A stretch of DNA of 64,000 nt, taken from IMG/VR virus record IMGVR_UViG_3300029554_000001; one strand, written 5' to 3'. Made by a program: the position numbers and the translations under genes. This stretch comes from a virus. This document shows, piece by piece, positions 8,588-60,312 of the stretch; positions within the stretch are counted from its first letter, which is position 1, and every line of letters starts with the position of its first letter. The notes below the pieces were generated by a model. The model saw only the letters and a program-made list of their open reading frames with translations. It had not been told where the DNA came from and did no database searches.

Positions 8588-8622
8588 TTCAGAAGATAAA
8601 AATTAGTAAAGGAGAGTTTAAG

Positions 8623-25988: not shown

Positions 25989-26096
25989 ATTTGACCGATT
26001 GGATTAGTAAAAAATAACTGAATAAACCCTTGACAAATGTAAATCTCTATGGTAATCTAATCATAGAGATTTACTTATTAAGAAAGGAAGTGGAAA

Positions 26097-27023: not shown

Positions 27024-27024
27024 T

Positions 27025-35953: not shown

Positions 35954-36691
35954 ATGAAACATACTGTTATGGATTAGATTACAGATAAAGAATTTGAACA
36001 AATAGTTAAAAATTCTTATTCTTATCGAGAAGTAGCTGAAAAATGTGGGTATTGTTGTATAAGTGGAGCTTCTTCTAATATTGTGAAAAAGAGAATTTAG
36101 AAATTAAATTTAGATGTTTTTCATTTTAAAAAATCGCTTCATGTTTATCGACCAGATGATGAAATTTTTGTTGAGGATTCAAAAGTAGGGCAGACAGTTT
36201 TAAGAAAACGTTTTTTAGCCTTGAATGTAGTTGAATATAAATGTTCAATATGTGGATAGGAACCATTTTGGAATGGAAAGCCTTTATCGTTAACATTAGA
36301 CCATATAAATGGTAAAAACCATGATAACAGGTTTGACAATTTAAGGTGGGTTTGTCCTAATTGTGATAGATAGCTTCCCACTTTTGGACGGCGTAATGCT
36401 ATTCACGAAGCAAAATATAATTATTGTGTTGATTGTGGAATTGTTATTACTTTTAATGCAACAAGATGTAAAAAATGTGCAGATAAAGTTAAAGCAGAAA
36501 AACAAAAAAATATCAACAAACCAAACAGAGAAGAATTGAAAAAATTAATTAGAGAAAAGAATTTTTTAACTTTAGGAAAAGAGTTTAATGTCTCTGATAA
36601 TACTATTAGAAATTGGTGCGAAAGTTATAATCTTCCAAAAAAAACAAGAGAAATAAGATTAATAAAAGACCAAGATTGGGAATTTTTGTAA
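35954..36691 (+). CDS. HNH homing endonuclease (4 in-frame TAG)
   Basis: LDHINGKNHDNRFDNLRWVCPNCD (HNH), Zn ribbons, and a C-terminal HTH-like NTIRNWC. TAGs at 35975, 36098, 36257 and 36371; codon-by-codon check runs to TAA 36689. Confidence 0.8.
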
Positions 36692-36775: not shown

Positions 36776-36797
36776 TCAGACTTAAATTTAAACAAAA

Positions 36798-36921
36798 GTT
36801 GACACTCACAGCAAATTTATTTTATGTTTTTGGAATAACGTCGTGTAAGGTTCGACTCCTTATTAACAAATCCCTTGAGCAAGGAATAGTTAACCGTGGA
36901 TGGCTAGAAAAAAGTGTCAAG
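36798..36921 (+). ncRNA. ACAGCAA-stem module A (T-arm plus capped-hairpin payload)
   Basis: 5' G-TTGACACT-C-ACAGCAA ... AGTGTCAA-G 3' (8 bp, compensated variant of TAGAC/GTCTA). Payload is the T-arm TAAGG-TTCGACT-CCTTA (36846-36862) then the capped helix TTAAC...GTTAA. Confidence 0.7.
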
Positions 36922-36934
36922 ATTGCTCACTTAT

Positions 36935-37025
36935 GGAGTAGTAAGCCTAATTGGTAAGGCACCAGTTTGCTAAATTGGTAGTAGCTTGAAAGAGCGTACT
37001 GGTTCGAGTCCAGTCTACTTCGCCA
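36935..37025 (+). tRNA. tRNA-Ser (anticodon GCT), class II
   Basis: GGAGTAG/CTACTTC, CCAGT-TTGCTAA-ATTGG, long variable arm, ACTGG-TTCGAGT-CCAGT, GCCA. Confidence 0.85.
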
Positions 37026-37146
37026 CAGAATTTATTATAGCTGCTCGTAGTAAATTCGTAGTATTAGAAGCAGTAAAGGTACGAGTATGGTATCCGGCAC
37101 AGGAGTGGTCGTTAAGGGCGAGATAAAGCTGAACTCCTTTTTATAT

Positions 37147-37265
37147 CCCCATTAGTGTAATGGAGCATTCTCGTTAACTGACGTTGAGTAAACACTAAGG
37201 TAGCTCCTTAGTGATAACAGACACATCGGGAGAGGAAGTTGGTTCGAATCCAATTATGGGGTCCA
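37147..37265 (+). tRNA. tRNA-like gene with a 53-nt insertion in the anticodon loop (anticodon unresolved)
   Basis: Acceptor CCCCATT/TATGGGG (one mismatch), anticodon stem TCTCG (37169-73)/CGGGA (37227-31), T-arm GTTGG-TTCGAAT-CCAAT, TCCA. The insert contains an 8-bp hairpin CACTAAGG/CCTTAGTG. Confidence 0.55.
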
Positions 37266-37400
37266 GTAACCACGATACCGCCTTGAAAAAGGTCGTGGAG
37301 GTTCGCCTAACAGATGGAGTATCGCTTAATGTTAGGATGTGTATATGGCGCACCTAAGTTCAGACCGTTCAGAACCTACAACCATATTAGCGGTGACAGC

Positions 37401-37501
37401 TTGGAGAGACAGCAAATATGCGGCAACTGGTGTAATAATAAAAGTAGCCATGGACAATACTTTTATTATGTTTGGAGTTCGATTCTTCGATGCCGCTCCA
37501 A
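37401..37501 (+). ncRNA. ACAGCAA-led atypical tRNA-like RNA (module variant B)
   Basis: TTGGAG-AG-ACAGCAA-ATAT, then acceptor GCGGCAA/ATGCCGC, a 12-bp hairpin ATAATAAAAGTA/TACTTTTATTAT (loop GCCATGGACAA), T-arm TGGAG-TTCGATT-CTTCG, and T-CCA. The leader TTGGAG pairs with CTCCAA, overlapping the CCA. Confidence 0.5.
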
Positions 37502-37860
37502 AAGACAGAATGGTTAGATATTTCTTGATGTCTTCAAAAAACAAGAAATCCGTAAGGTCTGTACGAAACATTCCTTGGAATACAGTTTAGCTGGTTACAA
37601 TGTATTCGACACTGAACCGCCCTCCAAGTCTGATGGACTGGTAACAATAGAAAGACCGTTGCTTTGCTTAACTGGGTACGTTAAACCCTTATGCAATGAG
37701 CAAAACTGATAATGAAAATGACCAAGATAGTTGAGTGTAAGCCCCTTATAAGGAATAGCCTCTCCTCAGCCAAACCGAGGACAGATAAGTGAAAAGCTGG
37801 TCTGTCAGTAGTTATCAGTTTTTGTTCCTTATATATTTAATAAAATAAAAGGGTGTTTTT
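37502..37860 (+). ncRNA. ORF-free structured region (unknown RNA)
   Basis: GC-richer than the coding DNA. Long-range pairing AACTGATAA (about 37697)/TTATCAGTT (about 37812) and several local hairpins. Track ORFs here lack RBSs. Confidence 0.3.
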
Positions 37861-38181
37861 ATGGATTACATTGATAAGCAGTTTGCTAAACGTGGATATA
37901 AATTAGTACGTCAAAATGAATATGGCGCTTATTATGAAAGAAAAGATAATAAGTTTAATTATACAAGTGAGCTTGATATTATAGCCAAAGCAAATGGTAA
38001 GCATCTTGTTCAGTGTTATGATGCCCAAGTAGTTTATGGTCATCCTGAAAAGGATTCTAACAACTATCGTGTTATGAATGAAGTTGATGGAATTGATGCT
38101 TCTCTTTCTTTTTGGATTTGGTTAAAGTTTCATCAGCTTAAAAGAAAGTATAAATGGGATAAGGTGAAGAAACATGATTGA
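37861..38181 (+). CDS. Hypothetical protein
   Basis: 106-aa ORF after AAAAGGGTG. Confidence 0.6.
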   Translation: MDYIDKQFAKRGYKLVRQNEYGAYYERKDNKFNYTSELDIIAKANGKHLVQCYDAQVVYGHPEKDSNNYRVMNEVDGIDASLSFWIWLKFHQLKRKYKWDKVKKHD

Positions 38182-38446
38182 GACATATATTAAGAAGCCT
38201 GTTGCTGTTCAAGCAATTATTTGGACCGGCGATAATGAGGATGAAATTACAAGCTTTGTTGGTGCTCATTGTTGTGTTACGACAGAGCATACTATGAATG
38301 GCGTTAAGAAGAATCTTATTATGTATACTCTCGAAGGTTATCACTGTGCCTCTGTTGGCGATTATATTGTCAAAGGTATTAAGGGAGAATTTTATCCTGT
38401 TAAGCCTGATATTATGGAATTAACTTATGTTAAGGTGACTGAGTAA
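38174..38446 (+). CDS. Hypothetical protein
   Basis: Overlaps the upstream stop. Confidence 0.6.
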   Translation: MIETYIKKPVAVQAIIWTGDNEDEITSFVGAHCCVTTEHTMNGVKKNLIMYTLEGYHCASVGDYIVKGIKGEFYPVKPDIMELTYVKVTE

Positions 38447-38826
38447 TGGATACTTCTTTGTTTGAAATTGTTGGTCATTATTCTATTTGGACTGGTGAAA
38501 TTACTAAATTCCGAGTTGATGATATTCTAAGAGATAAAGAATTTAATTATTGGTATAAGATAGATTCTGAAACTATTGAATATCCTTGGGAAGTTCGTAT
38601 TTTAGATGCTACTCAAGTTTGGACTAATGCTGACTGTTATCAAGATAGTACATCAGGTAAATGGATTTATAGATGCATTCCTTATGACGGTTTAATCTTT
38701 ACCCTTGAAGCTAATTCTATGACAGAATTGGTAGACCTTATTAGAGATTTTGTTACTCCTCCTGAAGACATGGAAACTAAACTTGTTGCAAGTTCTAATT
38801 ATGATTGTTTTACTCAAAAGTTCTAA
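38446..38826 (+). CDS. Hypothetical protein
   Basis: TAATG coupling. Confidence 0.6.
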   Translation: MDTSLFEIVGHYSIWTGEITKFRVDDILRDKEFNYWYKIDSETIEYPWEVRILDATQVWTNADCYQDSTSGKWIYRCIPYDGLIFTLEANSMTELVDLIRDFVTPPEDMETKLVASSNYDCFTQKF

Positions 38827-38931
38827 TAAAGACTTGACAAAGATTTAAAAGTGTGGTAAGATAAATACATCTTAAGAGAAGAGAAAAACAAAAAACTTCT
38901 CAAAAAGACAAAAATAAATTTTAATAAGTGG

Positions 38932-38960
38932 TTGACATCTTAAAGATGATATGCTATAAT
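38932..38960 (+). promoter_or_regulatory. sigma70-like promoter (extended -10) driving an RNA cluster
   Basis: TTGACA, 17 nt spacer, TGcTATAAT. Confidence 0.65.
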
Positions 38961-38992
38961 AAGTGCATAAATAAAACCTCCTGAATAATAAA

Positions 38993-39109
38993 GTAGACTC
39001 TTACAGCAAATTTTCTAAAGGATAACACAATTGTCTTGAAAACAATCATTAGCGAGTTCGATTCTCGTCAGAGGGCGCTCTGTGGTGAATAATACGCAAA
39101 AGAGTCTAG
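38993..39109 (+). ncRNA. ACAGCAA-stem module 1 (anticodon-arm mimic, T-arm and capped helix)
   Basis: G-TAGACTCT-T-ACAGCAA ... AGAGTCTA-G. Payload is ATTGT-CTTGAAA-ACAAT (39030-39046; same loop as tRNA-Ser-TGA), T-arm GCGAG-TTCGATT-CTCGT, and the capped helix CAGAG-GGCG-CTCTG. Confidence 0.7.
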
Positions 39110-39121
39110 GTTAATTAATTT

Positions 39122-39197
39122 GGTCGGTTAGTCAAGTGGGCTAAGACACTGGCCTTTCACGTCAGTAGCACGGGTTCGAACCCCGTACCGACTACCA
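39122..39197 (+). tRNA. tRNA-Glu (anticodon TTC)
   Basis: GGTCGGT/ACCGACT, CTGGC-CTTTCAC-GTCAG, ACGGG-TTCGAAC-CCCGT, ACCA. Confidence 0.85.
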
Positions 39198-39370
39198 TTA
39201 TTCAAATCAGAAATCCGTTCTTATGATAGTGTGAGTAAGTTTTATCGGAATTAAATGAGGGGAACTTAAATCTATCGAAGGGTTAAGAAATAATTGTTTG
39301 ACGAAAAGTTGTTTCTCCTTTCTCTCTATCTGAGATGAATAATTTCCTTTCTGTAAGATGATATTGTAAA

Positions 39371-39504
39371 GTAGAGACTAACAGCAATTTTAAAATTATG
39401 TTAAAAAACCAAGCTCCCATTCTTCGGTTCGAATCCGAACGTCTTCAGTTGAAGTATGTAGCCAAGTGGTTTAAGGCAGGAGCCCATAATAACAATGTCT
39501 CTAG
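39371..39504 (+). ncRNA. ACAGCAA-stem module 2 carrying a circularly permuted tRNA-Gln-like body
   Basis: G-TAGAGAC-TA-ACAGCAA ... GTCTCTA-G. Internal order: GCTCC, var CATTC, T-arm TTCGG-TTCGAAT-CCGAA, acceptor 3' CGTCTTC, cap AGTTG, acceptor 5' AAGTATG, TA, D-arm GCC-AAGTGGTTTAA-GGC, A, GGAGC. Confidence 0.7.
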
Positions 39505-39511
39505 TATTTAT

Positions 39512-39588
39512 GCCCGTGTAGCTCAGTTGGTAGAAGCATTTGCCTTTTAAGCAAAGGGTCGAGAGTTCGAGTCTCTCCACGAGCACCA
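39512..39588 (+). tRNA. tRNA-Lys (anticodon TTT)
   Basis: GCCCGTG/CACGAGC (C3.A70 mismatch), TTTGC-CTTTTAA-GCAAA, GAGAG-TTCGAGT-CTCTC, ACCA. Confidence 0.85.
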
Positions 39589-39604
39589 AAAGCATTAGTA
39601 CATT

Positions 39605-39669
39605 GTAGACGCTTACAGCAATTTTAATTGTACTTATCTGTTAAATAAGAATACACAAAAAGCGTCTAG
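39605..39669 (+). ncRNA. ACAGCAA-stem module 3 (65 nt; bare anticodon-stem-loop mimic, GUU loop)
   Basis: G-TAGACGCT-T-ACAGCAA ... AGCGTCTA-G. The apical hairpin CTTAT-CTGTTAA-ATAAG (39633-39649) has the same 7-nt loop as tRNA-Asn at 40971. Confidence 0.7.
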
Positions 39670-39696
39670 CCCCTTTCTAAAGGAGAACAATTAAAT

Positions 39697-39781
39697 GGGT
39701 GAGTAGTGAATCGGCAAACACGCTTGACTGTAAATCAAGTTCCTGACGGAGTAGAAGGGTCGGCACCTTCCTCACCCACCA
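39697..39781 (+). tRNA. tRNA-Tyr (anticodon GTA), class II, unusual T-loop
   Basis: GGGTGAG/CTCACCC, CTTGA-CTGTAAA-TCAAG, long variable arm, T-arm GAAGG-GTCGGCA-CCTTC (G replaces T54), ACCA. Confidence 0.8.
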
Positions 39782-39807
39782 ATTTAAAATTTAAAGGAGA
39801 AAATATT

Positions 39808-39978
39808 ATGGGTTTTATGGGAGAAATTTCAGAAAATATTGGTTGGAATGATTGTATTAATTATCTTCTAAAAAATGTTGATAAATTTCAATCAACTTTA
39901 GAAGGTGGAGCTTATGATTATTTTCCAAATGATGAAATTAAAGAAATTTTAAAGAATTTAATTAGACCGGAAATCTAA
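39808..39978 (+). CDS. Hypothetical small protein
   Basis: RBS AAAGGAG before ATG 39808. The upstream part of the track ORF overlaps tRNA-Tyr. Confidence 0.55.
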   Translation: MGFMGEISENIGWNDCINYLLKNVDKFQSTLEGGAYDYFPNDEIKEILKNLIRPEI

Positions 39979-40000
39979 TAAAATTTTTGTTTTAAAACTC

Positions 40001-40029
40001 TTGACAAAATGAAAATTTTATGCTATAGT
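40001..40029 (+). promoter_or_regulatory. sigma70-like promoter (extended -10)
   Basis: TTGACA, 17 nt spacer, TGcTATAGT. Confidence 0.65.
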
Positions 40030-40106
40030 AAAAATATGATAAAGATACAAATTTATTTGTAAGCTAATTGTTCATTTTTTATTGTTCATAAAAGCATTCC
40101 TTTCAA

Positions 40107-40237
40107 GTAGACTCTAACAGCAACTTTACAATCACAAATGCTAAGGACCTGTTTGTTGGAGGTTCGAATCCTTCACTCCCGACCATCGGGAGTTAGCTCA
40201 ACGGATAGAGCAACAGATTTTGTAAAAATGAGTCTAG
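40107..40237 (+). ncRNA. ACAGCAA-stem module 4 carrying a circularly permuted tRNA with encoded ACCA
   Basis: G-TAGACTC-TA-ACAGCAA ... GAGTCTA-G with a second helix TTTACAA/TTGTAAA. Internal order: CCTGT, TTGTT, T-arm GGAGG-TTCGAAT-CCTTC, acceptor 3' ACTCCCG, A-CCA-T, acceptor 5' CGGGAGT (perfect 7 bp), TA, D-arm GCTC-AACGGATA-GAGC, A, ACAGA. Confidence 0.75.
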
Positions 40238-40292
40238 TTAATAAATTGACGCTCCTATTTTCTTCAAATAGGCAAATATAAATTCCTTTCAA

Positions 40293-40410
40293 GTAGACAC
40301 GTACAGCAAAATTACTTGATGCTTTAATGTGGAAAATTAACGATAAGGTTCGACTCCTTAATCTTCTTTAGAAGATGCGTGGTTGCTGGAAATCAAAAAA
40401 ACGTGTCTAG
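40293..40410 (+). ncRNA. ACAGCAA-stem module 5 (anticodon-arm mimic GGA, T-arm and capped helix)
   Basis: G-TAGACACG-T-ACAGCAA ... CGTGTCTA-G. Payload is TTAAT-GTGGAAA-ATTAA (40324-40340), T-arm TAAGG-TTCGACT-CCTTA (identical to module A), and ATCTTCT-TT-AGAAGAT. Confidence 0.7.
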
Positions 40411-40419
40411 GTTAAATAT

Positions 40420-40504
40420 GGCTGAGTGGCGAAATTGGCATACGCAGTTGCTTCAAGTACAACCCTCGAAAGAGATGTGGGTTCAAGTCCCACCTCAGCT
40501 ACCA
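40420..40504 (+). tRNA. tRNA-Leu (anticodon CAA), class II
   Basis: GGCTGAG/CTCAGCT, loop TTCAAGT, long variable arm, GTGGG-TTCAAGT-CCCAC, ACCA. Confidence 0.8.
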
Positions 40505-40970
40505 TAATTGCATCTCAATTGGCAGATAGCGAATGCAATTTATATTAAACTGCCCGATTCAGCAAGGATGGCTAAAGCCTTGTCGGTGCTCCATATATTT
40601 GAACTCATTTTTAGTCCGTTAAGCTAAAACCCTCTCTCCCGACCGAAGAAGGTGTAGAATACAAGTTAATGGTATTCGAATGGGAAGAACACCAACTATA
40701 AGATAAGGCAACTTACCAAGGTGCAAATATGGCAAGAAAACCTTTTGGACGAAATTGGTGCCGTGCTTACGGGGATAGATAGTTGCGCATCTATCTAAAC
40801 AAAAACTCTGATTACTGCAACTAAATCGGGGTAGGTATTGAGGTTATGGGTCATGTAACCTTAAAACACAATAAGCCGAGCATACTGCTTATTGCTCCTA
40901 ACAGGTGGTGCTGAGGATGAACAACAAAAGCCAAGTTATAGAGTTCTTGTAAAAAACTCTATTGTTATTT
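40505..40970 (+). ncRNA. ORF-free ~465-nt structured region (unknown RNA)
   Basis: No ORF in any frame in the track. GC-richer than flanks. Local helices include ATTGCAT/ATGCAAT and GATAGAT/ATCTATC. Confidence 0.3.
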
Positions 40971-41047
40971 GGAAGTATAGCTCAGTTGGCTAGAGCGCTT
41001 GGCTGTTAACCAAGATGTCACAAGTTCAAGTCTTGTTATTTCCGCCA
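40971..41047 (+). tRNA. tRNA-Asn (anticodon GTT)
   Basis: GGAAGTA/TATTTCC, CTTGG-CTGTTAA-CCAAG, ACAAG-TTCAAGT-CTTGT, GCCA. Confidence 0.9.
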
Positions 41048-41048
41048 A

Positions 41049-41125
41049 AAGTGGAGGGTGTAGGTTCGAGTCCTGCCCTGCTCGTGGGAAACCCTTGCAG
41101 GAAGCTGCTAGGTACAGCGCCACTT
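41049..41125 (+). ncRNA. Circularly permuted tRNA-like domain (no ACAGCAA stem)
   Basis: Closing stem AAGTGG/CCACTT. Order: var AGGGT, T-arm GTAGG-TTCGAGT-CCTGC, capped helix CCTGC...GCAGG, AA, D-arm-like GCTG-CTAGGTA-CAGC, G. Starts 1 nt after the CCA of tRNA-Asn. Confidence 0.5.
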
Positions 41126-41181
41126 AGAATTTCTTTCACCTTATTACGCGAAATATGGGATTGAGATGTTGCTTTAGTCGG

Positions 41182-41207
41182 GTTCTTTTACAGCAGAAAA
41201 TAAGAAC
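41182..41207 (+). ncRNA. Minimal hairpin bearing a TTACAGCAG loop (possible degenerate module)
   Basis: GTTCTT-TTACAGCAGAAAAT-AAGAAC. Confidence 0.3.
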
Positions 41208-41399
41208 GCACCTGTTTAATTGGGTTTTTTAGTTCAGTAAAAACAAGAAAAACCTCGGTTGTTTAGAAATTTTCTTCTGATATTGAATGAAAACATTTAG
41301 AGAATTCTCTCATTGCAATGCCGAAAGGTAGCAAGATATGAAAACAGCTAATTGGTGAACATATTTGCTACCGAGTAGGGATAAGAGAGAATTAAATAT

Positions 41400-41475
41400 G
41401 CTTTGGTAGCTCAATTGGTAGAGCAGTGGACTGAAAATCCACGTGTAGCCAGTTCGATTCTGGCCTAAAGCACCA
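41400..41475 (+). tRNA. tRNA-Phe (anticodon GAA)
   Basis: GCTTTGG/CTAAAGC, GTGGA-CTGAAAA-TCCAC, GCCAG-TTCGATT-CTGGC, ACCA. Confidence 0.9.
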
Positions 41476-41476
41476 T

Positions 41477-41560
41477 TGCTGGCGAGTGAAACGGATATAT
41501 AAATCACGCTTGGCTCATACCCAAGTAATAGTGGGTTCGACTCCCATGCTTCAGCAACCA
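41477..41560 (+). tRNA. tRNA with CAT anticodon (Met or Ile2), irregular acceptor/T junction and oversized D-loop
   Basis: CTTGG-CTCATAC-CCAAG is a perfect anticodon arm. T-arm GTGGG-TTCGACT-CCCAT. Acceptor TGCTGGC/TTCAGCA has 2 extra nt (GC) after the T-stem. ACCA. Confidence 0.55.
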
Positions 41561-41584
41561 AAAAATAAAAGGAAGTAAATTCTA

Positions 41585-41893
41585 ATGACTATTAATTTTA
41601 AGATTTACATTTATTAGACAGCAAATAATAAAAAGTTTGTTTATAGATGTCCTCATTGTAATAAAGGGATAATGCAAGTAGCAGAAACTAAAACTGCTAA
41701 AGATGAAACTAATTTTTTATCTTGGAATTATACTTGCCCAGTTTGTAAGAAGCAGATTGTCTCTATTGAAAAAGACGGTTGTTCTTCTTTTAAAAGTGTG
41801 TTCCCTCCAATGACTCAAATTAGTGATAAAGAATTTACTGATATTAAAAAGGATGTAGGAGAGAAGGGTATTTATCTATTCTCTGAAACATAA
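41585..41893 (+). CDS. Zn-ribbon protein (1 in-frame TAG)
   Basis: ATG 41585 and TAG 41615 are in frame with the track ORF at 41672. CPHC...CPVC. Confidence 0.55.
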
Positions 41894-41896
41894 AAT

Positions 41897-41992
41897 GCTA
41901 GCGTACAGAAATTGGTTATAACTGCCTAGACTTGAAATCTTGTGTGTTGACGTTGAATCAGCCTGTGGGTTCGAATCCTACCGCTAGCGCCA
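41897..41992 (+). tRNA. tRNA-Ser (anticodon TGA), class II
   Basis: GCTAGCG/CGCTAGC, CTAGA-CTTGAAA-TCTTG, long variable arm, GTGGG-TTCGAAT-CCTAC, GCCA. Confidence 0.8.
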
Positions 41993-42010
41993 TTAAACGG
42001 AGTCTTTAAT

Positions 42011-42217
42011 ATGAAAATTTGGAATGGAAATGATTTTGAATATCTTGGTTATTTTGTAAAAAATAATAAGAAAGCCAAATATTTTGAGGTTTTTGATAAG
42101 AATGGCAATCTTCTTTTCAAACAAACTAATTGGGGTCATGCTTGTGTGACTTCAGTTAAACATAAGATTGAAGACTTTCATAAAAAATATGGACAGGAGA
42201 TTAAAAATGAACAATAA
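42011..42217 (+). CDS. Hypothetical small protein
   Basis: 68-aa ORF. Confidence 0.55.
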   Translation: MKIWNGNDFEYLGYFVKNNKKAKYFEVFDKNGNLLFKQTNWGHACVTSVKHKIEDFHKKYGQEIKNEQ

Positions 42218-42722
42218 TAATTCAATCGAAATCGAACGTAAGTTTTTAATCTCTGGTTTTCCTAAAGTCGATTTTGATGAAGTCGGAATTGTTAAAACTA
42301 TCTATATTAATATCAAATATAATTCTGATGGAAAAATTTTACAGGAAATTCGTATAAGACGTTGGTTTGAAAGTGGCAAAGGTTATCGTCCAGATGCTCT
42401 TACTTTTAAATCTGGTGGTACTTTAACTCGTACTGAAATTGAAACAAATCTTACAGATAATTCTTTGTTTGACTGTTTTAATGAACTTGGTTATAATCCT
42501 ATTGTAAAAGATTATAGAGGTCTTTACAATAATGGCTATTTAATTGAATTCAATCTTGTAGATGGCGGTACTGATACTGCTTTCTATTATGCCGAAGTTG
42601 AATTTGATTCTGAGGAAGAAGCTAACAGTTATGTTTGGCCTTTTCCTGAAGTATTTATTGAGGAAGTTACTAATAAGCCTGAATATAAGATGGCAAATTA
42701 TTGGAAACGTACTCGTGGATAA
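42207..42722 (+). CDS. CYTH-domain (triphosphate tunnel metalloenzyme) protein
   Basis: N-terminal IEIERKFLI (ExExK signature). RBS GGACAGGAG before ATG 42207. Confidence 0.7.
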   Translation: MNNNNSIEIERKFLISGFPKVDFDEVGIVKTIYINIKYNSDGKILQEIRIRRWFESGKGYRPDALTFKSGGTLTRTEIETNLTDNSLFDCFNELGYNPIVKDYRGLYNNGYLIEFNLVDGGTDTAFYYAEVEFDSEEEANSYVWPFPEVFIEEVTNKPEYKMANYWKRTRG

Positions 42723-42746
42723 GGACTATTGTTTAGTCCTTTATTT

Positions 42747-42822
42747 GCTGGATTAGCTCAGTTGGTAGAGCGATTGATTTGTAATCAATAGGTCGGGGGT
42801 TCGAATCCGTCATCCAGCTCCA
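42747..42822 (+). tRNA. tRNA-Thr (anticodon TGT)
   Basis: GCTGGAT/ATCCAGC, ATTGA-TTTGTAA-TCAAT, T-loop TTCGAAT, TCCA. Confidence 0.85.
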
Positions 42823-42857
42823 CAAATTTTCTTGTCAAATAAAAGAGGATTTTTATT

Positions 42858-43031
42858 ATGGATGAATTTTTAATCTCAGAAGAGAATATGAAAATCTTTG
42901 AGCAGATTAAAGCTTTAAAGAAAGATAAATATACCATGAAAGATGTTAATACCATTTGCGAATTGCTTGGGGTTAAATTGTTTTGGTATCAAAAGTTTGT
43001 TCTTCTTCATCTTCTTAATGATAAAAATTAA
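42858..43031 (+). CDS. Possible 57-aa protein
   Basis: RBS AAAAGAGGA before ATG 42858. Below the track length cutoff. Confidence 0.4.
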   Translation: MDEFLISEENMKIFEQIKALKKDKYTMKDVNTICELLGVKLFWYQKFVLLHLLNDKN

Positions 43032-43042
43032 ATGAGGTACAT

Positions 43043-43324
43043 ATGCCGATAAGAAACGGAAACAATGATATTTATAGTGACATTTTCTTCCAATATTTGA
43101 ATGAGAATGAAGAGAAGATGATTGATGAAGTGGCTTCTAAGCTTGAAAAACACAATCCAGTTCTTTATCCTAAAGATGTTTCAGTAGCAATTTCGAAATC
43201 CATTTATAGTGATTATAAGAAATATCTTTATGAACATGGATATACTTTTAAGAAAGAATACTTAGAAGAATACTTAGAAGAATACTTTAAAAATTTAACA
43301 GAAGAAATTCTTAAAAACTCTTGA
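43043..43324 (+). CDS. Hypothetical protein
   Basis: 93-aa ORF containing the internal repeat EEYLEEYLEEY. Confidence 0.55.
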   Translation: MPIRNGNNDIYSDIFFQYLNENEEKMIDEVASKLEKHNPVLYPKDVSVAISKSIYSDYKKYLYEHGYTFKKEYLEEYLEEYFKNLTEEILKNS

Positions 43325-43404
43325 CAAAAGAAATTGAATGTGATATACTAAATTATAGTTTCAAATCTATTATCCAGTTTTATTAAATTTTAAGTGTGAT
43401 TAAA

Positions 43405-43638
43405 ATGAGTAAACAGATTAAATTGACTCCTTTACAAAAATTAGAGTTTATCAAAATGTGGTTGGGAAAGGATTTCTTTTTTCCTAAGCAACGTGAAGAA
43501 AAACTTTTAGATTTGTTAAAGGATGAAAAAGAAATCAAATGCTCAAAAGACTATAATTCTTACTTAGCTACTTTAAAATTTCTTGAACAAGTTCTTACAG
43601 ATGCTCAAACATGGGATGAATTTGTTGAGGATGAATAA
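43405..43638 (+). CDS. Hypothetical protein
   Basis: ATG 43405 lies downstream of TTGACA..TATACT. Confidence 0.55.
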   Translation: MSKQIKLTPLQKLEFIKMWLGKDFFFPKQREEKLLDLLKDEKEIKCSKDYNSYLATLKFLEQVLTDAQTWDEFVEDE

Positions 43639-43658
43639 AAAGAAATTTTAAAAAGTAC

Positions 43659-43687
43659 TTGACAAGATGAAGAGTATATGTTATACT
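43659..43687 (+). promoter_or_regulatory. sigma70-like promoter driving the distal RNA cluster
   Basis: TTGACA, 17 nt spacer, TATACT. Confidence 0.65.
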
Positions 43688-43719
43688 TAAGATGTGGTTG
43701 AGAGATACAACCTAAAAAT

Positions 43720-43815
43720 GCGGGAGTTAAGGAGAGGCCACCTTACCACATTCCGAGTGTGGGTTAAATCCGTCAAGAACGGTGCTCGCGGGTTCGAATC
43801 CCGTCTCCCGCTCCA
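43720..43815 (+). tRNA. Class II (long variable arm) tRNA with apparent CCG anticodon
   Basis: GCGGGAG/CTCCCGC, D-arm AAGG..CCTT, CCACA-TTCCGAG-TGTGG, about 25-nt variable arm with CCGT/ACGG stem, GCGGG-TTCGAAT-CCCGT, TCCA. Confidence 0.6.
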
Positions 43816-43942
43816 TTCCTTAGTAGTTTAAAAGACGATAAACAAATTAAAATACCCTTCAGTCGGAAAGCCTCTAATGAGTATAGAATGGCACTCAAGT
43901 AGGGAGTTCTGGATGGGCGAATCGGAACCACCAGCTAAGGAA
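43816..43942 (+). ncRNA. Cloverleaf-like element closed by an 8-bp stem
   Basis: TTCCTTAG/CTAAGGAA closing stem, then TA and D-arm-like GTTT..AAAC. Shares the 13-mer AGTAGTTTAAAAG (43822-43834) with the insert of tRNA-Ile (44638-44650). Confidence 0.35.
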
Positions 43943-43950
43943 AAATATAT

Positions 43951-44110
43951 AGGGGTGTAGCCAAGCGGTAAGGCAAGGGACTTTCAAGAATTAATTCAAG
44001 TAGAATCCAGTGGATTAGTTTAAAGACTGTTTCGACGGTATATTGGTTCAAGTCCAATATTCTTGACCAGACTCCCTGACTCGAAGGTTCAAATCCTTCC
44101 ATCCCTGCCA
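43951..44110 (+). tRNA. tRNA-Gln (anticodon TTG) interrupted by a 85-nt tRNA-like insert
   Basis: AGGGGTG/CATCCCT, Gln-type D-arm GCC-AAGCGGTAA-GGC, anticodon stem AGGGA (43976-80)/TCCCT (44073-77), GAAGG-TTCAAAT-CCTTC, G73, CCA. Loop halves CTTT (43981-84) and GAC (44070-72) sum to CTTTGAC. Confidence 0.75.
43985..44069 (+). tRNA. Nested tRNA-like gene inside the tRNA-Gln anticodon loop
   Basis: Perfect acceptor CAAGAAT/ATTCTTG, TA, D-arm ATTC-AAGTA-GAAT, stem CAGT/ACTG with a 14-nt loop, T-arm ATTGG-TTCAAGT-CCAAT, then A-CCA. Confidence 0.6.
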
Positions 44111-44139
44111 TAAGTAACAATTCAAATTATCGTTTACGT

Positions 44140-44284
44140 GTAGACGCTTACAGCAAACAATAATAAAATCAAATTCTAGTAAAAAAGATATAAATTAATA
44201 TTTAAAAAAGATTTTGGGTATTGTTCCTTGCTAATTAGTTTATGATGCTTTCATGATTCTCCTTTGTTAGTATTATGCGTCTAG
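44140..44284 (+). ncRNA. ACAGCAA-stem module 6 (AT-rich ~120-nt payload)
   Basis: G-TAGACGC-TT-ACAGCAA ... GCGTCTA-G. Confidence 0.6.
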
Positions 44285-44291
44285 TTTATAA

Positions 44292-44358
44292 GTGCCGTAC
44301 CAAGGTTGGGGTCGCTCGACGGAGGGCTTAAGAAGGGGTTCGAATCCCCCACGGTGCA
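44292..44358 (+). ncRNA. 67-nt tRNA-like element (acceptor and T-arm only)
   Basis: GTGCCGT/ACGGTGC (2 G.U pairs), T-arm (A)GGGG-TTCGAAT-CCCC(C). No convincing anticodon arm. Confidence 0.35.
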
Positions 44359-44414
44359 AGATTGAATTGTTTGGAGTACTACAAACAAGATGGTAAGTTA
44401 TTGATGATTTAAAA

Positions 44415-44479
44415 GTAAACCCTTACAGCAATTTAACTACTTAATTTTTGCTTGAAAAAAGATTATGGATAGGGTTTAG
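44415..44479 (+). ncRNA. ACAGCAA-stem module 7 (65 nt)
   Basis: G-TAAACCCT-T-ACAGCAA ... AGGGTTTA-G (G>A in the 5' strand compensated by C>T in the 3' strand). U/A-stem hairpin containing the CTTGAAA string (44451-57). Confidence 0.65.
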
Positions 44480-44495
44480 ATTTGTAATGTTAAAA

Positions 44496-44585
44496 GTAGA
44501 CACTAACAGCAATTTTAAAAAGTATTCTATATATATATTAAAATGCCAAAATTTAATTGTACATATTAACTTTTAAAGTGTCTAG
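44496..44585 (+). ncRNA. ACAGCAA-stem module 8 (AT-rich payload)
   Basis: G-TAGACACT-A-ACAGCAA ... AGTGTCTA-G. Confidence 0.6.
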
Positions 44586-44595
44586 GATTTTATAT

Positions 44596-44731
44596 AGGAC
44601 GGTAGCTTAATCGGTTTAAGCCTCCGACTTATCTGAGAGTAGTTTAAAAGTAAAACTGTTAATGTAAGTGCAAGACTTGCCTTTCAGACCAAATCGGAAG
44701 ATTGTGAGTTCGAGTCTCACCCGTCCCACCA
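44596..44731 (+). tRNA. tRNA-Ile (anticodon TAT) interrupted by a 59-nt minihelix insert
   Basis: AGGACGG/CCGTCCC (A1.C72 mismatch), D-arm GCTT..AAGC, anticodon stem TCCGA (44623-27)/TCGGA (44694-98), GTGAG-TTCGAGT-CTCAC, ACCA. Loop halves CTTAT (44628-32) and AA (44692-93) sum to CTTATAA. Confidence 0.75.
44633..44691 (+). ncRNA. Nested acceptor-stem/D-arm minihelix ending in ACCA
   Basis: CTGAGAG/CTTTCAG (7 bp, one G.U), TA, GTTT-AAAAGTA-AAAC, short hairpin, then A-CCA. Confidence 0.55.
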
Positions 44732-44749
44732 TTTATAATTAAAAATAAA

Positions 44750-44819
44750 GTAGACTCTTACAGCGATTACTTAGAGACTTGTGATGTGGGATTACATATG
44801 TTTTGAAAAATGAGTCTAG
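44750..44819 (+). ncRNA. ACAGCAA-stem module 9 (loop variant ACAGCGA)
   Basis: G-TAGACTC-TT-ACAGCGA ... GAGTCTA-G with internal hairpin TGTGAT-GTGGG-ATTACA. Confidence 0.6.
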
Positions 44820-44828
44820 CTTTATTAA

Positions 44829-44905
44829 GCGCCTGTAGTCTAATTGGATAAAACCGCACTCTTCTAAAGTGTATCTTATGAGTTCGAATCTCGTCAGGCG
44901 TGCCA
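44829..44905 (+). tRNA. tRNA-Arg (anticodon TCT)
   Basis: GCGCCTG/CAGGCGT, GCACT-CTTCTAA-AGTGT, ATGAG-TTCGAAT-CTCGT, GCCA. Confidence 0.85.
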
Positions 44906-44934
44906 CTTAAGGTCATTTGACTTTATTTAACATT

Positions 44935-45005
44935 GCGGCGTAGTATAATGGTCAATGCGCACGGCTCTAACCCGTGAAATGCTCGTTCGATTCGAAGTCG
45001 CCGCT
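44935..45005 (+). tRNA. Candidate amber-suppressor tRNA (anticodon CTA)
   Basis: Perfect anticodon arm CACGG-CTCTAAC-CCGTG (44960-44976). Acceptor GCGGCG/CGCCGC, TA, D-arm GTA-TAATGGTCAA-TGC. T-loop TTCGATT with an imperfect stem GCTCG/CGAAG. No encoded CCA. Confidence 0.6.
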
Positions 45006-45112
45006 GAAATATCTAAGGAAAAGTATTTTTCCTTTTGACATATAAGCAGAATAAACAAAAAATTAAAATAAAAACTAAAGTAAAACAAAGAAATTAAAGG
45101 AGACAAAAAATT

Positions 45113-45568
45113 ATGTGTGACAACTGCAAGAACGACATTTCCCGACCGTCTAATTCTTCTATTGCTTATGGTGTTTATGAGAGTGGTGGCGTAGTCAAGG
45201 CTGAGGTAACTGATACTGCATTTGATGCAATGCATGTTATTACTCGTCTTTGTGAAAAGGCTGATATGAAGACTATTTCTCTCGAAGGTATTTGGGAGAA
45301 CACTCTTCTTGAAAACAGCTATCGTGGTAAGGCTAAGGTAAACCATGCTGATGGTGACAAGTTCGTTGAAGATATTGGTAAGGAATTTGCTCGTGGCAAG
45401 GCTCTTGAAAAGTATCATCGAGCATTTGACCGTAAGATTCTTGCAATGCTTCTTGATGCACGAGTTCTGGTTGCAACCATTGAACATTATTGTGCTAAGA
45501 AGAGCATCAACACTGAAAAGATTCCTTCGATTGAAGCGATTTCTAAGAAGCGCTTTGGTTGTAAGTAA
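45113..45568 (+). CDS. Hypothetical protein
   Basis: RBS AAAGGAG upstream; 151 aa. Confidence 0.65.
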   Translation: MCDNCKNDISRPSNSSIAYGVYESGGVVKAEVTDTAFDAMHVITRLCEKADMKTISLEGIWENTLLENSYRGKAKVNHADGDKFVEDIGKEFARGKALEKYHRAFDRKILAMLLDARVLVATIEHYCAKKSINTEKIPSIEAISKKRFGCK

Positions 45569-57114: not shown

Positions 57115-57177
57115 GTTAGACTCTCACAGCAAACTACAAAAAACTTTTATTTTGGAAAAAGGACAAAAAGAGTCTAG
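57115..57177 (+). ncRNA. ACAGCAA-stem module 10, in the 5' leader of the Ro60-like gene
   Basis: GT-TAGACTCT-C-ACAGCAA (57117-57132) ... AGAGTCTA-G (57169-57177). Followed by the hairpin TCCTTT-AGA-AAAGGA (57178-57192), which includes the AAGGAG RBS. Confidence 0.65.
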
Positions 57178-57199: not shown

Positions 57200-58930
57200 A
57201 TGTATAACTACAACAATCCTAACAAGAAGAATAACACTAAGGCTTGGGCTCCTAAGCCTGAAAAGCCTGTTACTAAGTCCAACCGAGTTAGCCGTAAGGC
57301 TTCTTTCATGGACAAGGTTGAGAATACTGCCAAGGGCTACTACACTCAGGTTGCAATTCCTTCTCTTCCTGCTGATAAGCAGTACACTTCTAATGGTGCT
57401 ATTGCCTACAAGTCCTCTGGTTCTGCTCTTCTTGATATCAATACTTCCATTACCGCTCTTCGTAGTCTTCCTGATGGTAATATTGTGAAGAAGTTCCGTG
57501 CAGCTTATTCTGAGAATCCTCGTCTCGCTATTCGTTGGCTGTTCTATGCTGGCGATATCCGTGAGGGTCAGGGTGAGCGCCGTCTCTTCCAGATTTGCCT
57601 TAAGGATATGATGAACAATGGTGGTGCTCAGATTGTGGCGAACCTGATTCCTATGATTCCTGAGTATTCTCGTTGGGATTATATCTATGTTGTCATGGAT
57701 AATCCTACTACTAAGCCTGTTGTTCGTGAACTGATTCGTAAGCAGTGGAAGGAAGATATGGCTAATATGAAGAAGGGCAAGTCCATTAGCCTTATGGCGA
57801 AGTGGCTTGATAGTGCTTCTTCTCACAGCCATGATACTCGTAAGCGTGGTCTTAAGACTATGGATATGCTCGGTCTGACTGAACGTGAGTATCGTAAGGG
57901 GCTGTCTGCTCTCCGTAAGCACCTTGATGTTGTTGAGCGTAAGATGTCTTCTCAGAATTGGCAGAGCATTAATTACGAGACTGTTCCTTCTAAGGCAAAC
58001 CTTAATTACAACAAGGCTTTCCTTCGTAATGATGAGGAGCGCCGTCGTGCCTATTTGAACGCTCTTACTAAGGGCGAGGCAAAGATTAATTCTTCCGTAT
58101 CTAATCCTTGTGACATTGTTCACAAGTATTGCGAGAATGATTGGGGTACTTCTCCTCATTCTTATGATGCCGCCCTTGAAGGCATGTGGAAGGCTCTTCC
58201 CAATCTTGTAACCGATGATAGTTCCACTATTGTTGTTGCCGATGGTTCTGGTTCTATGTGTGCTACCGTGGGTCGTACTCGTATGACTGCTCTTGAGGTT
58301 GCTAACTCTCTTGCAATTTACTTTGCAGAGCGTGCTAAGGGTGCATACAAGGGTCGTTACATTACTTTCTCTGCACGTCCTCAGATGGTTAATGTTAATC
58401 ATGACTCTTTGCGTGCAAATCTTAGAGAAGCTGCTCGTCATAGTGAGGTTGCTAATACCAACCTTGAAGCAGTATTTGACCTGATTCTTGATACTGCAAT
58501 TAAGAATCATTCTCCTCAGAGTGATTTGCCTAAGAATATTCTGATTATCAGTGATGGTGGTTGGGATTCTATGGTAAATATCCGTAATGTTAGCACTGGC
58601 AGTAATGGTTACGGTGGTTATGGTTATTGGGGTTATAACAGCACTCGTGCTACTGCTAAGGAAGCTCCTGCTTTCCTTAAGTCCATTGAGCAGAAGTACA
58701 AGAACGCTTCCTATGAGTGTCCAAAAATTTGTTTTTGGAATGTGTGCGGAAATGGTAACACTAATAATGGTCTTCCTATGACCAAGAATGACTATGGTAT
58801 CATGGTCAGCGGGTTTAGTGTTCAAACTTTGAAAATGATTCTCAGTGGCAAGACTAATCCTTGGGATGCACTTATGGAAGTGGTCTTGGATAAGCGTTAT
58901 GACAAGATTGAGGAGCTTGCTTTTAAGTAA
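57200..58930 (+). CDS. Ro60-like protein: helical N-domain (DUF2828/TROVE-like) plus vWA domain with MIDAS
   Basis: GAIAYKSSGSALLD, ENPRLAIRWLFYAGDIREGQGERRLF, MIDAS VVADGSGSM. C-terminal ICFWNV...NNGLP...YGIMVSGFSVQTLKMI parallels Ro60 LIVCGM..NGF.IADP.DRGMLDMCGFDTGALDVI. Confidence 0.65.
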   Translation: MYNYNNPNKKNNTKAWAPKPEKPVTKSNRVSRKASFMDKVENTAKGYYTQVAIPSLPADKQYTSNGAIAYKSSGSALLDINTSITALRSLPDGNIVKKFRAAYSENPRLAIRWLFYAGDIREGQGERRLFQICLKDMMNNGGAQIVANLIPMIPEYSRWDYIYVVMDNPTTKPVVRELIRKQWKEDMANMKKGKSISLMAKWLDSASSHSHDTRKRGLKTMDMLGLTEREYRKGLSALRKHLDVVERKMSSQNWQSINYETVPSKANLNYNKAFLRNDEERRRAYLNALTKGEAKINSSVSNPCDIVHKYCENDWGTSPHSYDAALEGMWKALPNLVTDDSSTIVVADGSGSMCATVGRTRMTALEVANSLAIYFAERAKGAYKGRYITFSARPQMVNVNHDSLRANLREAARHSEVANTNLEAVFDLILDTAIKNHSPQSDLPKNILIISDGGWDSMVNIRNVSTGSNGYGGYGYWGYNSTRATAKEAPAFLKSIEQKYKNASYECPKICFWNVCGNGNTNNGLPMTKNDYGIMVSGFSVQTLKMILSGKTNPWDALMEVVLDKRYDKIEELAFK

Positions 58931-58995: not shown

Positions 58996-60312
58996 ATGGA
59001 AACTGTAAAGCAAAATAAACAATTAATGGAAATTTGGGATACAGAAGAAAATAAAAAACAAAATATTTTCCCCGAAAATATTTCTTTGGGAAGTTCTAAA
59101 ATAAAAATAAACTGGAAAGATAAATATGGTCATAAATGGCAAAGAGCTGTTTCTGTATAGTTAAGAGCAAAAAATATATGCCCCATTTGTGCTAATAAAA
59201 AAATAATAAGAGAAAATAGCTTTGCTACTCTTTATCCAGAGATTTTAAAAGACTGGGATTATGATAAAAATACAATATCGCCATTTAATATTTCTCCAAA
59301 ATCAGGTCGAAAAGTTTGGTGGAAGTGTTTTATTTGTGGATTTAATTGGTAGACCAGAGTAAGCCATAGAACACAAAATGGAACTGGTTGTCCTGAATGC
59401 TCTAAAAGCATAATTTCACAGAAAAAATAGGCAACTGATTATTAGCATAGTTTGGCTAATCTTTATCCTTAGTTATTATCAGAGTGGGATTATAATAAAA
59501 ATGATAAAAAACCATCAGAAATTTATGCCCATTCTTCTTATAACGCATGGTGGAAATGCGAATTTGGGCATTCTTGGTAGGCGAAAGTACATTCTCGAAC
59601 AAGAGAAAAACCTGCTGGATGTCCAATTTGTCTAAAAAGATATTGTAGCAGTTTTCCAGAGTAGGCTATTTATTATTACTTTTAGTAGGTAACTAAAACT
59701 ATTAATAGAGATTAGAGCTTTGGAAGAGAAAAAGAAATAGATATTTATTGCCCAAAATTAAAAATTGGAATAGAATATAATCGGTCATTTTTCCATCAAA
59801 ATGAAAAAACAGAAGATAAAATTAAGTTCTTTAAAGAAAAAGGCATTAGACTAATTGTTGTTACAGATGCAAAAGAGAACAAAGTAGATAATGATTGTAT
59901 TTATCATAAAGAGACAGATGAGGATTTATCTTGGGCTATTAAAGAAATTTTTAAAATAATTCAAATAGAACCTCCATTAATTGATATTGGCAAAGACAGA
60001 AATTCTATTTTGGATAACTATATGTTTTCCATGAAAGAAAAAAGTTTATTAGCTAAAGTACCTGATGTTATATATCAATGGGATTATGAAAAAAATTACC
60101 CTTTAAAACCAGAATAGTTTTTACCACAGAGTCGTTTTGAAGCTAATTGGAAATGCTCAAATCGGCATTTATGGAAGCAAAGAATTTGTAATAAAGTAAC
60201 TCATCAAAATGGAAAATATCATATCTCTCAATGTAGCATCTGTAAACCAATTAAAGGTGGATTTAAATTGTCCCCGTTTGCCACTGAACTAACTTATGAA
60301 AGAGAGGGGTAA
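58996..60312 (+). CDS. Homing-endonuclease-like protein: repeated treble-clef Zn ribbons plus Vsr/PD-(D/E)xK-like core (11 in-frame TAG)
   Basis: Repeats WxCxxGHxW..(x)..R....GCPxC. FPEQAIYYYF and EIDIYCPKLKIGIEYN..FFH. 438 codons checked one by one: 11 TAG, no TAA or TGA before 60310. Confidence 0.75.

Follow-up and report, generated by a model that had tools for sequence, protein, structure and literature searches.

The suppressor of a phage in which TAG is translated as glutamine is an already documented kind of tRNA: phage-encoded tRNAs with the anticodon CUA are known from crAss-like, Lak, 'gemstone' and jumbo phages (bioRxiv 10.1101/2021.08.26.457843; PMC9523058; PMC13037316). Here we describe a tRNA gene with this anticodon, tRNA(CUA), from the IMG/VR virus record IMGVR_UViG_3300029554_000001, of which a stretch of 64,000 nucleotides was analysed (the window). 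It is likely that tRNA(CUA), the last tRNA of an array in a gut phage of about 215 kb, is a functional amber suppressor of this phage and reads UAG as glutamine, in accordance with genetic code 15.

Like the known phage suppressors, tRNA(CUA) is phage-encoded and belongs to a low-GC gut phage with in-frame TAGs corresponding to glutamine and with rare or absent TAG stops, and its charging by the glutaminyl-tRNA synthetase (GlnRS) of the host is presumed. Unlike in the known recoded phages, however, the TAGs of the window (which contains no structural or lysis genes) lie in genes of DNA metabolism, and homing-endonuclease-like genes are densely populated with them. Moreover, tRNA(CUA) has a bulged T-stem, a U1.U72 mismatch and no encoded CCA, features that are undiscussed in the literature on known phage suppressors covered by a limited search. 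Judged by the same limited search, the scaffold with the bulged T-stem, the enrichment of unpaired 1-72 positions and the rapid turnover of the genomic slot, all described below, may be new.

Among the suppressors of E. coli, supE (glnV, tRNA-Gln with the anticodon CUA) arose by a point mutation in a cellular tRNA-Gln; its T-stem is normal, and its first three acceptor pairs are U1-A72, G2-C71 and G3-C70. It resembles tRNA(CUA) in the anticodon, G73, a weak first acceptor pair, G10 and the (for the phage tRNA presumed) insertion of glutamine at UAG. The phage tRNA differs from supE in that it is not detectably nearer to tRNA-Gln than to other tRNAs and has C3-G70. An origin from the phage's own tRNA-Gln was rejected as well, as the identity of 64% lies within the background of 57-69% found with other tRNAs. 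With su+7, another E. coli suppressor, a tRNA-Trp(CUA) is charged by GlnRS, i.e. a body that does not stem from tRNA-Gln but carries CUA is glutaminylated (PMC2965240; PMC9976931). The phage family to which tRNA(CUA) belongs appears to use this principle; however, su+7 is a laboratory mutant with dual identity, whereas the phage family, which has a scaffold of its own, is a conserved lineage found in nature.

The phage origin of the window is supported by near-identical viral contigs of 123-221 kb in IMG/VR and by a phage-type gene content. A near-identity search of GenBank phages gave 80 bp of a tRNA-Thr as the sole match, and a search of IMG/VR with the exact 17-mer of the anticodon arm retrieved two true relatives, next to chance matches in coding sequence (L003-L005).

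Gene call, register and structural family of tRNA(CUA)

tRNA(CUA) is a bona fide tRNA gene. ARAGORN calls a 71-nt tRNA with the anticodon CUA at 44935-45005, labelled 'tRNA-Pyl(cta)', which is merely the name that this program gives to the anticodon CUA. Rfam/Infernal-type scoring, suggested as a check in a preliminary description of the window made from the letters and open reading frames (ORFs) alone, gave 36.8 bits with RF00005 over a gathering score of 29 (E=4e-4 for the whole window). The gene closes a series of about 20 tRNA genes that extends from 31.9 to 45.0 kb and lies entirely on the plus strand. ARAGORN and Rfam therefore bear out the tRNA with the anticodon CUA which the preliminary description had placed at the end of the array, and several of its parts had been read correctly from the sequence as well: the anticodon stem of 5 bp (CACGG/CCGUG), the loop CUCUAAC with U33, CUA and A37, U8-A9, the GG of the D-loop (G18G19), the T-loop UUCGAUU and the lack of an encoded CCA, G73 being followed by AAA. 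In the Rfam register, the core nucleotides U8, A14, A15/U48, G18G19, U33, A37, U54 U55 C56, A58 and G53-C61 are intact. A second CUA anticodon stem-loop in tRNA context does not occur in the window, even with an intron-tolerant search, so that a different CUA tRNA, named in the preliminary description as a possible source of all suppression, is not found within these 64 kb.

The structural defects attributed to the tRNA did not hold, since both the ARAGORN fold and that of the preliminary description are one base out of register. In the Rfam alignment GCGGCG corresponds to positions 2-7, so position 1 is T44934, and we adopted this register because the Rfam alignment, the position of G73-CCA in relatives, the pair counts and RNAalifold agree. 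The supposed U.U at 7-66 is thereby assigned to the pair 1-72, and 7-66 is G-C. The D-stem consists of four pairs (G10-C25, U11.G24, A12-U23 and U13-A22) instead of three, with a D-loop of 8 nt, and the T-stem, for which three Watson-Crick pairs had been described, comprises five pairs GCUCG/CG(A)AGU (G49.U65, C50-G64, U51-A63, C52-G62 and G53-C61) plus one bulged A (44995). CGCCGC, on the 3' side of the acceptor, precedes U72 (45005) and the discriminator base G73 (45006), and the variable loop has 4 nt. Standard tRNA finders can thus misplace such suppressors by one base, which gives them a defective look.

Relatives of the same architecture encode N72-G73-C-C-A exactly in the corrected register, and in 12 distinct members of this phage tRNA(CUA) family the corrected structure is 96% paired. 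RNAalifold, applied to the 12 members without a supplied structure, returned the cloverleaf with the bulged T-stem and an open 1-72, with compensatory changes at 16 of 20 pairs. The T helix shows changes on both sides at four of its five pairs; in the ARAGORN register only 72% of it is paired and the pair 48-64 never forms. The corresponding figure for the bulged model, 100%, is partly circular, since three of the members were obtained with a regular expression demanding T-stem pairing, while the other nine are ARAGORN's own calls of 70-71 nt. This circularity speaks against the proposed fold to some degree, as does the fact that the minimum free energy (MFE) structure of the single sequence (-21.2 kcal/mol, z=-0.6) is not a cloverleaf; the latter has -19.3 kcal/mol, 1.9 above the MFE. 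However, single-sequence folding says little here, because other tRNAs of the array (Arg-CCU and Lys) also give MFE folds without arms.

G73 is invariant in all 12 members, and 1-72 is unpaired in nine of them, U-A in two and G.U in one; the combinations U.U, A.C, C.U, G.A, U-A and G.U occur across the family. The uninterrupted 5-bp T-stem and the paired 1-72 of a canonical elongator tRNA are therefore not present in tRNA(CUA), but since both deviations are conserved in the family, they constitute a variant architecture and not damage. An exact-match search with the 18-mer of the bulged T-arm in 185,579 bacterial and archaeal species (one genome each) gave 12 matches, none of them in a tRNA, although diverged versions escape such a search; by this measure the scaffold seems to be restricted to phages. 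The portion of the T-stem that holds the bulge tunes the affinity for EF-Tu. A milder idea than the maturation scenario considered below is that the bulged scaffold is adapted to binding by EF-Tu or helps to evade host defences that target tRNAs. It might also serve as a natural amber-suppressor chassis in synthetic biology.

TAG as a codon for glutamine

All genes of the window are located on the plus strand, and the gaps between the ORFs of the standard code are filled by frames that are broken solely by TAG. The 69 genes of at least 100 aa stop with TAA (54) or TGA (15), and none of them requires TAG as a stop; they contain 53 in-frame TAGs next to 433 CAA and CAG codons. In the only gene with a candidate TAG stop, encoding a RecD2-like helicase, the tail of 40 codons beyond this TAG ends with TAA and is kept in all siblings. 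The anaerobic ribonucleotide reductase NrdD contains four TAGs, three of which align to glutamine in the Thermotoga enzyme (E=6.5e-152), and all four sites are glutamine in every one of 86-119 homologs with 84-99% identity. This is not an artefact of gene calling with code 15, because the DNA of relatives reads TAG/CAG/CAA/CAA (protein 94% identical) or CAG/CAG/CAG/CAA (84% identical) at the four sites. TAG is a sense codon in real genes of the window, and its counterpart in relatives is CAG or CAA. With in-frame TAGs in real genes and CAG or CAA at the NrdD sites of relatives, the role of tRNA(CUA) as the decoder which a TAG-sense reading requires, as claimed earlier, is well supported, and the phage of about 215 kb must be annotated with genetic code 15 (TAG = Gln).

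The TAGs are concentrated in homing-endonuclease-like genes (8, 2 and 4 codons) and in the gene of a DUF4379 protein (11 codons), and most genes have none. Perhaps the mobile genes depend on the suppressor more than any others; alternatively, they may be derived from more heavily recoded genomes.

It is extremely improbable that tRNA(CUA) inserts an amino acid other than glutamine, such as pyrrolysine, lysine, tyrosine, tryptophan, serine or leucine, since all four NrdD TAGs are CAG or CAA in relatives and glutamine in homologs. Pyrrolysine is suggested by the ARAGORN label, which denotes the anticodon, and tRNAPyl (pylT) is likewise a natural CUA tRNA for which UAG is a sense codon. However, tRNAPyl has an anticodon stem of 6 bp, a variable loop of 3 nt, a tiny D-loop without G18G19, no T54-Psi55-C56 and one base between the acceptor and D stems. 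These hallmarks are absent from tRNA(CUA), which has an anticodon stem of 5 bp, a variable loop of 4 nt, U8-A9 between the stems and a D-loop of 8 nt that contains GG; as TAG moreover equals glutamine here, a tRNAPyl identity was rejected. In addition, neither pylS nor pylBCD is found among the annotated ORFs of the window, where every ORF of at least 300 aa is otherwise assigned. In favour of lysine, it has been reported that lysyl-tRNA synthetase can mischarge amber suppressors in E. coli (PMC1483225; PMC2965240).

For crAss-like phages that carry suppressors without being recoded, a perturbation of host translation has been proposed (PMC12386605). That the main role of tRNA(CUA) is of this kind, namely read-through of host TAG stops or anti-defence and not the decoding of the phage's own genes, is very improbable, since sense TAGs in conserved phage genes require own-gene decoding. 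A side effect on the host is nevertheless possible.

Probable function and proposed charging and maturation of the window copy

Two further IMG/VR contigs of 123 and 214 kb contain tRNA(CUA) in identical form or with one different base in the D-loop, which makes three strains together with the window. The distant phage L109 (212 kb) possesses an orthologous tRNA in the same slot, which is approximately 89% identical, whereas the protein encoded downstream is 57% identical. In this ortholog the changes in the acceptor and the anticodon stem are compensated, and CCA is encoded. The NrdD genes of close siblings contain one to four TAGs each, those at 36 and 107 being common and those at 172, 211, 226, 462 and 513 strain-specific. 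TAGs are absent from the NrdDs of relatives at ≤85% identity and polymorphic among NrdDs that are ≥95% identical (loci L265-L344). Strains with the suppressor type of the window (A-type) have private NrdD TAGs, at 172 in contig 162176 and at 226 and 513 in the window, which implies that new TAGs kept arising in an essential gene under this suppressor. Because of these private TAGs and the retention of the L109 tRNA through compensated stem changes, tRNA(CUA) is very probably functional.

It is unlikely that the window contains a decaying or inactive copy, crippled by the loss of CCA in addition to an unpaired 1-72, and that the reading of TAG falls to another suppressor gene beyond the window, to a co-infecting phage or to the host. 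In favour of decay, tRNA(CUA) is the only tRNA of the array without an encoded CCA, which all 18 of 18 others have, and the slot is unstable, with unrelated or intron-interrupted CUA tRNAs in siblings. Phages with seemingly unused suppressors are known (PMC12386605). Furthermore, the count of a single CUA tRNA covers 64 kb of the genome of about 215 kb, so that a second suppressor could be encoded in the other approximately 150 kb. The missing CCA, which might mean a reduced or lost function, and this limited coverage both detract from a functional suppressor. On the other hand, the tRNA body is intact in three strains and the ortholog was retained with compensated changes in L109; the private TAGs in the essential NrdD are found in exactly the strains with this tRNA; and one array holds all tRNA genes seen, with a single CUA tRNA. 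The missing CCA is the only lineage-specific oddity of tRNA(CUA), and CUA tRNAs without CCA exist in other phages (10 of 46, register assigned heuristically). Bacteria generally possess a CCA-adding enzyme, which also counts against decay. The pattern TGAGGA...TCCTCTGCCA, by which a further suppressor in these genomes was sought, was too permissive to discriminate.

As a functional suppressor, tRNA(CUA) would be co-transcribed with tRNA-Arg(UCU) and cut by RNase P before U1. Exonucleases or a cut of the RNase Z type would take off the 3' trailer, and CCA would be supplied by a CCA-adding enzyme, which is needed because this lineage has AAA in place of CCA. After charging with glutamine, presumably by the GlnRS of the host, EF-Tu would deliver the tRNA to UAG codons in competition with release factor 1 (RF1).

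In the complex of E. coli GlnRS with its tRNA, the enzyme opens the pair 1-72. The identity set of E. coli tRNA-Gln consists of U35, G36, 1-72, 2-71, 3-70, G73 and 10-25 (PMC9976931), and charging of phage TAG suppressors by the host GlnRS has been proposed before (bioRxiv 10.1101/2021.08.26.457843). U35, G73, an unpaired 1-72 and G10-C25 are present in tRNA(CUA). We infer GlnRS charging since C34-U35, G73, G10-C25 and a 1-72 that needs no melting match the GlnRS identity set. A census of phage tRNAs, based on loci which were fetched before any acceptor-biased search and on a heuristically assigned register, is consistent with this view: a mismatch at 1-72 occurs in 20 of the 46 distinct phage CUA tRNAs, compared with 9 of 223 other phage tRNAs (odds ratio 18, p=3e-11), and G73 is combined with a 1-72 other than G-C in 23 of 46 versus 22 of 223. 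The unrelated 'type B' suppressors of siblings also have U1.U72 and G73. The apparent defect at the acceptor end therefore looks like a selected identity feature, and the enrichment of an unpaired 1-72 with G73, together with the bulged scaffold, suggests how phages may hijack the GlnRS of their hosts.

Not all observations fit charging by GlnRS. G36 and G3-C70 of the E. coli set are absent; position 36 is A because the anticodon is CUA, and the pair 3-70 is C-G. The pairs 2-71 and 3-70 vary within the family, the former being G2-C71 in the window copy and C-G in half of the family. If the host had no GlnRS, the GluRS/GatCAB route would be needed, which prefers U34 and U1-A72 (PMC9976931). The phage came from gut samples, and an identical suppressor is present in L521 (USDL01000001.1, 123,382 bp) of the human-gut metagenome-assembled genome (MAG) 'uncultured Clostridium sp. 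UMGS1616', but a phage contig binned into a Clostridium MAG is a weak host hint. The pair C31-G39, which favours GlnRS (PMC1483225), was considered as a further element and found inapplicable, since the family has G31-C39.

The window also encodes a set of RNA-repair proteins, i.e. a Pnkp-like kinase adjoining a T4 Rnl1-like ligase, a Thg1-like enzyme and a small nucleotidyltransferase. The preliminary description considered the defects of tRNA(CUA) notable in view of these enzymes. This connection could not be substantiated, as the supposed defects are, apart from the missing CCA, either a matter of register or conserved traits of the family and nothing was found that ties the enzymes to tRNA(CUA). 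Enzymes of the Pnkp/Rnl1 type mend breaks in anticodon loops, as known from T4, and not features of this sort. A tblastn search with the repair proteins against the fetched suppressor loci, which are short, gave nothing relevant.

One could still imagine that tRNA(CUA) is a 'pro-tRNA' without activity in its transcribed form, that the Thg1-like enzyme (29521-30354) rewrites N1 against U72 and the nucleotidyltransferase (14553-15368) builds the CCA, and that decoding is switched on only afterwards. The Thg1-like protein is recognized with E=3e-28 (Pfam) and E=5e-77 (PHROG), the nucleotidyltransferase of 271 aa matches PHROG 388 (E=3e-12), and the L109 genome has a Thg1-like gene, too. Writing A1 opposite U72 would match the end of the phage tRNA-Gln(UUG) (A1-U72, G73) and resembles mitochondrial tRNA 5' editing. 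In that case tRNA maturation, and not transcription, would set the time at which the standard code gives way to code 15. However, we regard this scenario as improbable. Thg1-like enzymes work on 5'-truncated tRNAs, so that U1 would have to be removed first. In a profile-based locus search, at least 574 large phage contigs proved to carry Thg1-like genes, among them relatives whose NrdD has no TAG, so there is no specific association; the best 80 overlap the suppressor contigs only at L109. Furthermore, the many 1-72 combinations of the family fit a pair that must be weak better than one that must be rewritten. For the nucleotidyltransferase, no similarity to CCA-adding enzymes could be detected, and it was rejected as such an enzyme, with its weak NTP_transf_2 match, PHROG 388 and no relative in the PDB.

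RNA-handling genes of the window (7622-9981, 25260-28284, 29521-30354 and 57200-58930) also include a DUF2828/DUF7788 vWA protein, listed in PHROGs as 'RNA-binding protein', and a macro-domain protein which adjoins a PARP+WGR protein.

The suppressor slot and other features of the window

The slot between tRNA-Arg(UCU) and the gene at 45113-45568 is highly variable where the downstream protein is 99-100% identical. It contains the A-type tRNA in three genomes, unrelated 'TGAGGAA...' CUA tRNAs with at least five different bodies in eight, and a CUA tRNA with a 219-nt insert in the anticodon loop in four genomes (L006, L008, L018 and L019). These interrupted CUA tRNAs lie approximately 0.4-1.5 kb upstream of the homolog of the gene at 45113-45568. 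The insert of L008 matches the Rfam model of group I introns, RF00028, at positions 1-253 with 34.9 bits (E=1.7e-7, below the gathering score) and is thus an apparent group I intron. The turnover of the slot by replacement, intron invasion and CCA loss, together with the interchange of TAG and CAR in NrdD, suggests a code change under way.

The features of the locus and the genes with in-frame TAGs are compiled in Table 1.

Table 1. Positions of tRNA(CUA), its parts and neighbours, and genes with in-frame TAGs in the window
Feature	Position	Strand	Basis or remark
RecD2-like helicase gene; TAG at 6975-6977, then 40-codon tail with 2 more TAGs	4632-7097	+	
RNase T/DnaQ-type exonuclease gene, 3 in-frame TAGs	10993-11535	+	
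NrdD (anaerobic ribonucleotide reductase) gene, 4 sense TAGs (11886-11888, 12099-12101, 12456-12458, 13317-13319)	11781-13709	+	Suppressor client
GIY-YIG-like/NUMOD1 homing-endonuclease-like gene, 8 in-frame TAGs	26097-27023	+	NUMOD1 by Pfam; GIY-YIG from N-terminal motif alone
HNH/AP2 gene, 2 in-frame TAGs	28285-29037		
HNH-type endonuclease-like gene, 4 in-frame TAGs	35954-36691	+	Weak Pfam match
AGTAGACNCTTACAGCAA, copy nearest to the suppressor	44749-44766	+	
tRNA-Arg(UCU)	44829-44905	+	Suppressor begins 29 nt past its CCA; probably co-transcribed; same order in siblings
tRNA(CUA), amber suppressor (likely), position 1 to G73, 73 nt	44934-45006	+	ARAGORN, Rfam RF00005 (register 2-69), family covariation
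Acceptor strands of tRNA(CUA)	44934-44940 / 44999-45005	+	
D arm; anticodon arm	44943-44958; 44960-44976	+	
Variable loop; T arm	44977-44980; 44981-44998	+	
Anticodon CUA (C34 U35 A36), in loop CUCUAAC (44965-44971)	44967-44969	+	Sequence, ARAGORN anticodon position
Bulged A in 3' strand of T-stem, between 62 and 63, position kept family-wide	44995	+	Rfam insert, pairing counts, RNAalifold
U72 (mismatch with U1 at 44934), G73, then AAA (CCA in relatives)	45005-45009	+	Sequence comparison; ortholog of L109 has U72-G73-CCA
AT-rich hairpin AAGGAAAA / TTTTCCTT, directly 3' of the tRNA	45015-45034	+	Sequence
Sigma-70-like promoter match TTGACA-17-AAAAAT, upstream of the gene at 45113-45568	45035-45063	+	10/12 consensus matches; consensus match only
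DUF4379 treble-clef zinc-finger protein gene, 11 in-frame TAGs	58996-60312	+	

The hairpin downstream of tRNA(CUA) may terminate transcription of the array. At the corresponding place in L109 there is a stronger hairpin with a T-run; the hairpin of the window was not flagged by a terminator scan. The motif AGTAGACNCTTACAGCAA occurs in 11 copies (0.22 expected), all on the plus strand, at 36797-44766 and at 57115. Most copies are located 60-130 nt upstream of tRNA genes, and the motif is also present in L109. It is a candidate for a phage promoter or processing signal and may serve as such for the pair of tRNA-Arg(UCU) and tRNA(CUA), too. A weak match to Dictyostelium class I RNA was dismissed as spurious, since it is caused by AGTAGACNCTTACAGCAA.

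Several other tRNAs of the array deviate from the usual form as well, and 'intronic sequences' in tRNAs of jumbo phages have been mentioned before (PMC13037316). In tRNA-Gln(UUG) (43951-44107; A1-U72, G73, CCA) the anticodon loop is broken behind its CUUU by an insert of approximately 85 nt, which is absent from the siblings L008, L011, L012 and L016. This insert has terminal inverted repeats (AAGAAT/ATTCTT) and an internal T-arm-like hairpin, AATATTGG-TTCAAGT-CCAATATT, and is far too short for a group I intron. A tRNA of 133 nt at 44596-44728 contains an insert of 59-62 nt in its anticodon loop and is also found in L006 (8237-8369), L008 (9268-9400) and L019 (8275-8407). The insert is conserved despite differing exons, and its closing stem covaries (TCTGAGAG/CTTTCAGA versus TGTTTTAG/CTAAAACA); depending on the choice of the boundaries, the anticodon is CCA, UCA, UAA or UAU. 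Given the Pnkp-like and Rnl1-like enzymes, a protein-dependent splicing of this tRNA is conceivable. In its intron mode, ARAGORN also reports an interrupted Val-AAC tRNA with a 46-nt insert at 37147-37265, which Rfam does not report at the gathering threshold.

A tRNA-like element at 44293-44360 combines an acceptor-like stem of 7 bp (GTGCCGT/ACGGTGC) with a perfect T-arm (GGGGG-TTCGAAT-CCCCC), but has no recognisable D or anticodon arms. Neither ARAGORN nor the Rfam tRNA model calls it, and its only match is one of 12 bits to a tmRNA T-arm. tRNA-Arg(CCG) (43720-43815) is 96 nt long because its variable region forms an additional arm of about 23 nt, which is unusual for tRNA-Arg; in siblings it has 75 nt (L012) or 96 nt (L011).

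Outside the array, two separate ORFs (262-1353 and 2102-4642) together encode DNA polymerase III alpha. The approximately 750 bp between them harbour small TAG-containing ORFs (1383-1782), and this gap may be due to an intron, to an intein or to the insertion of a mobile element.

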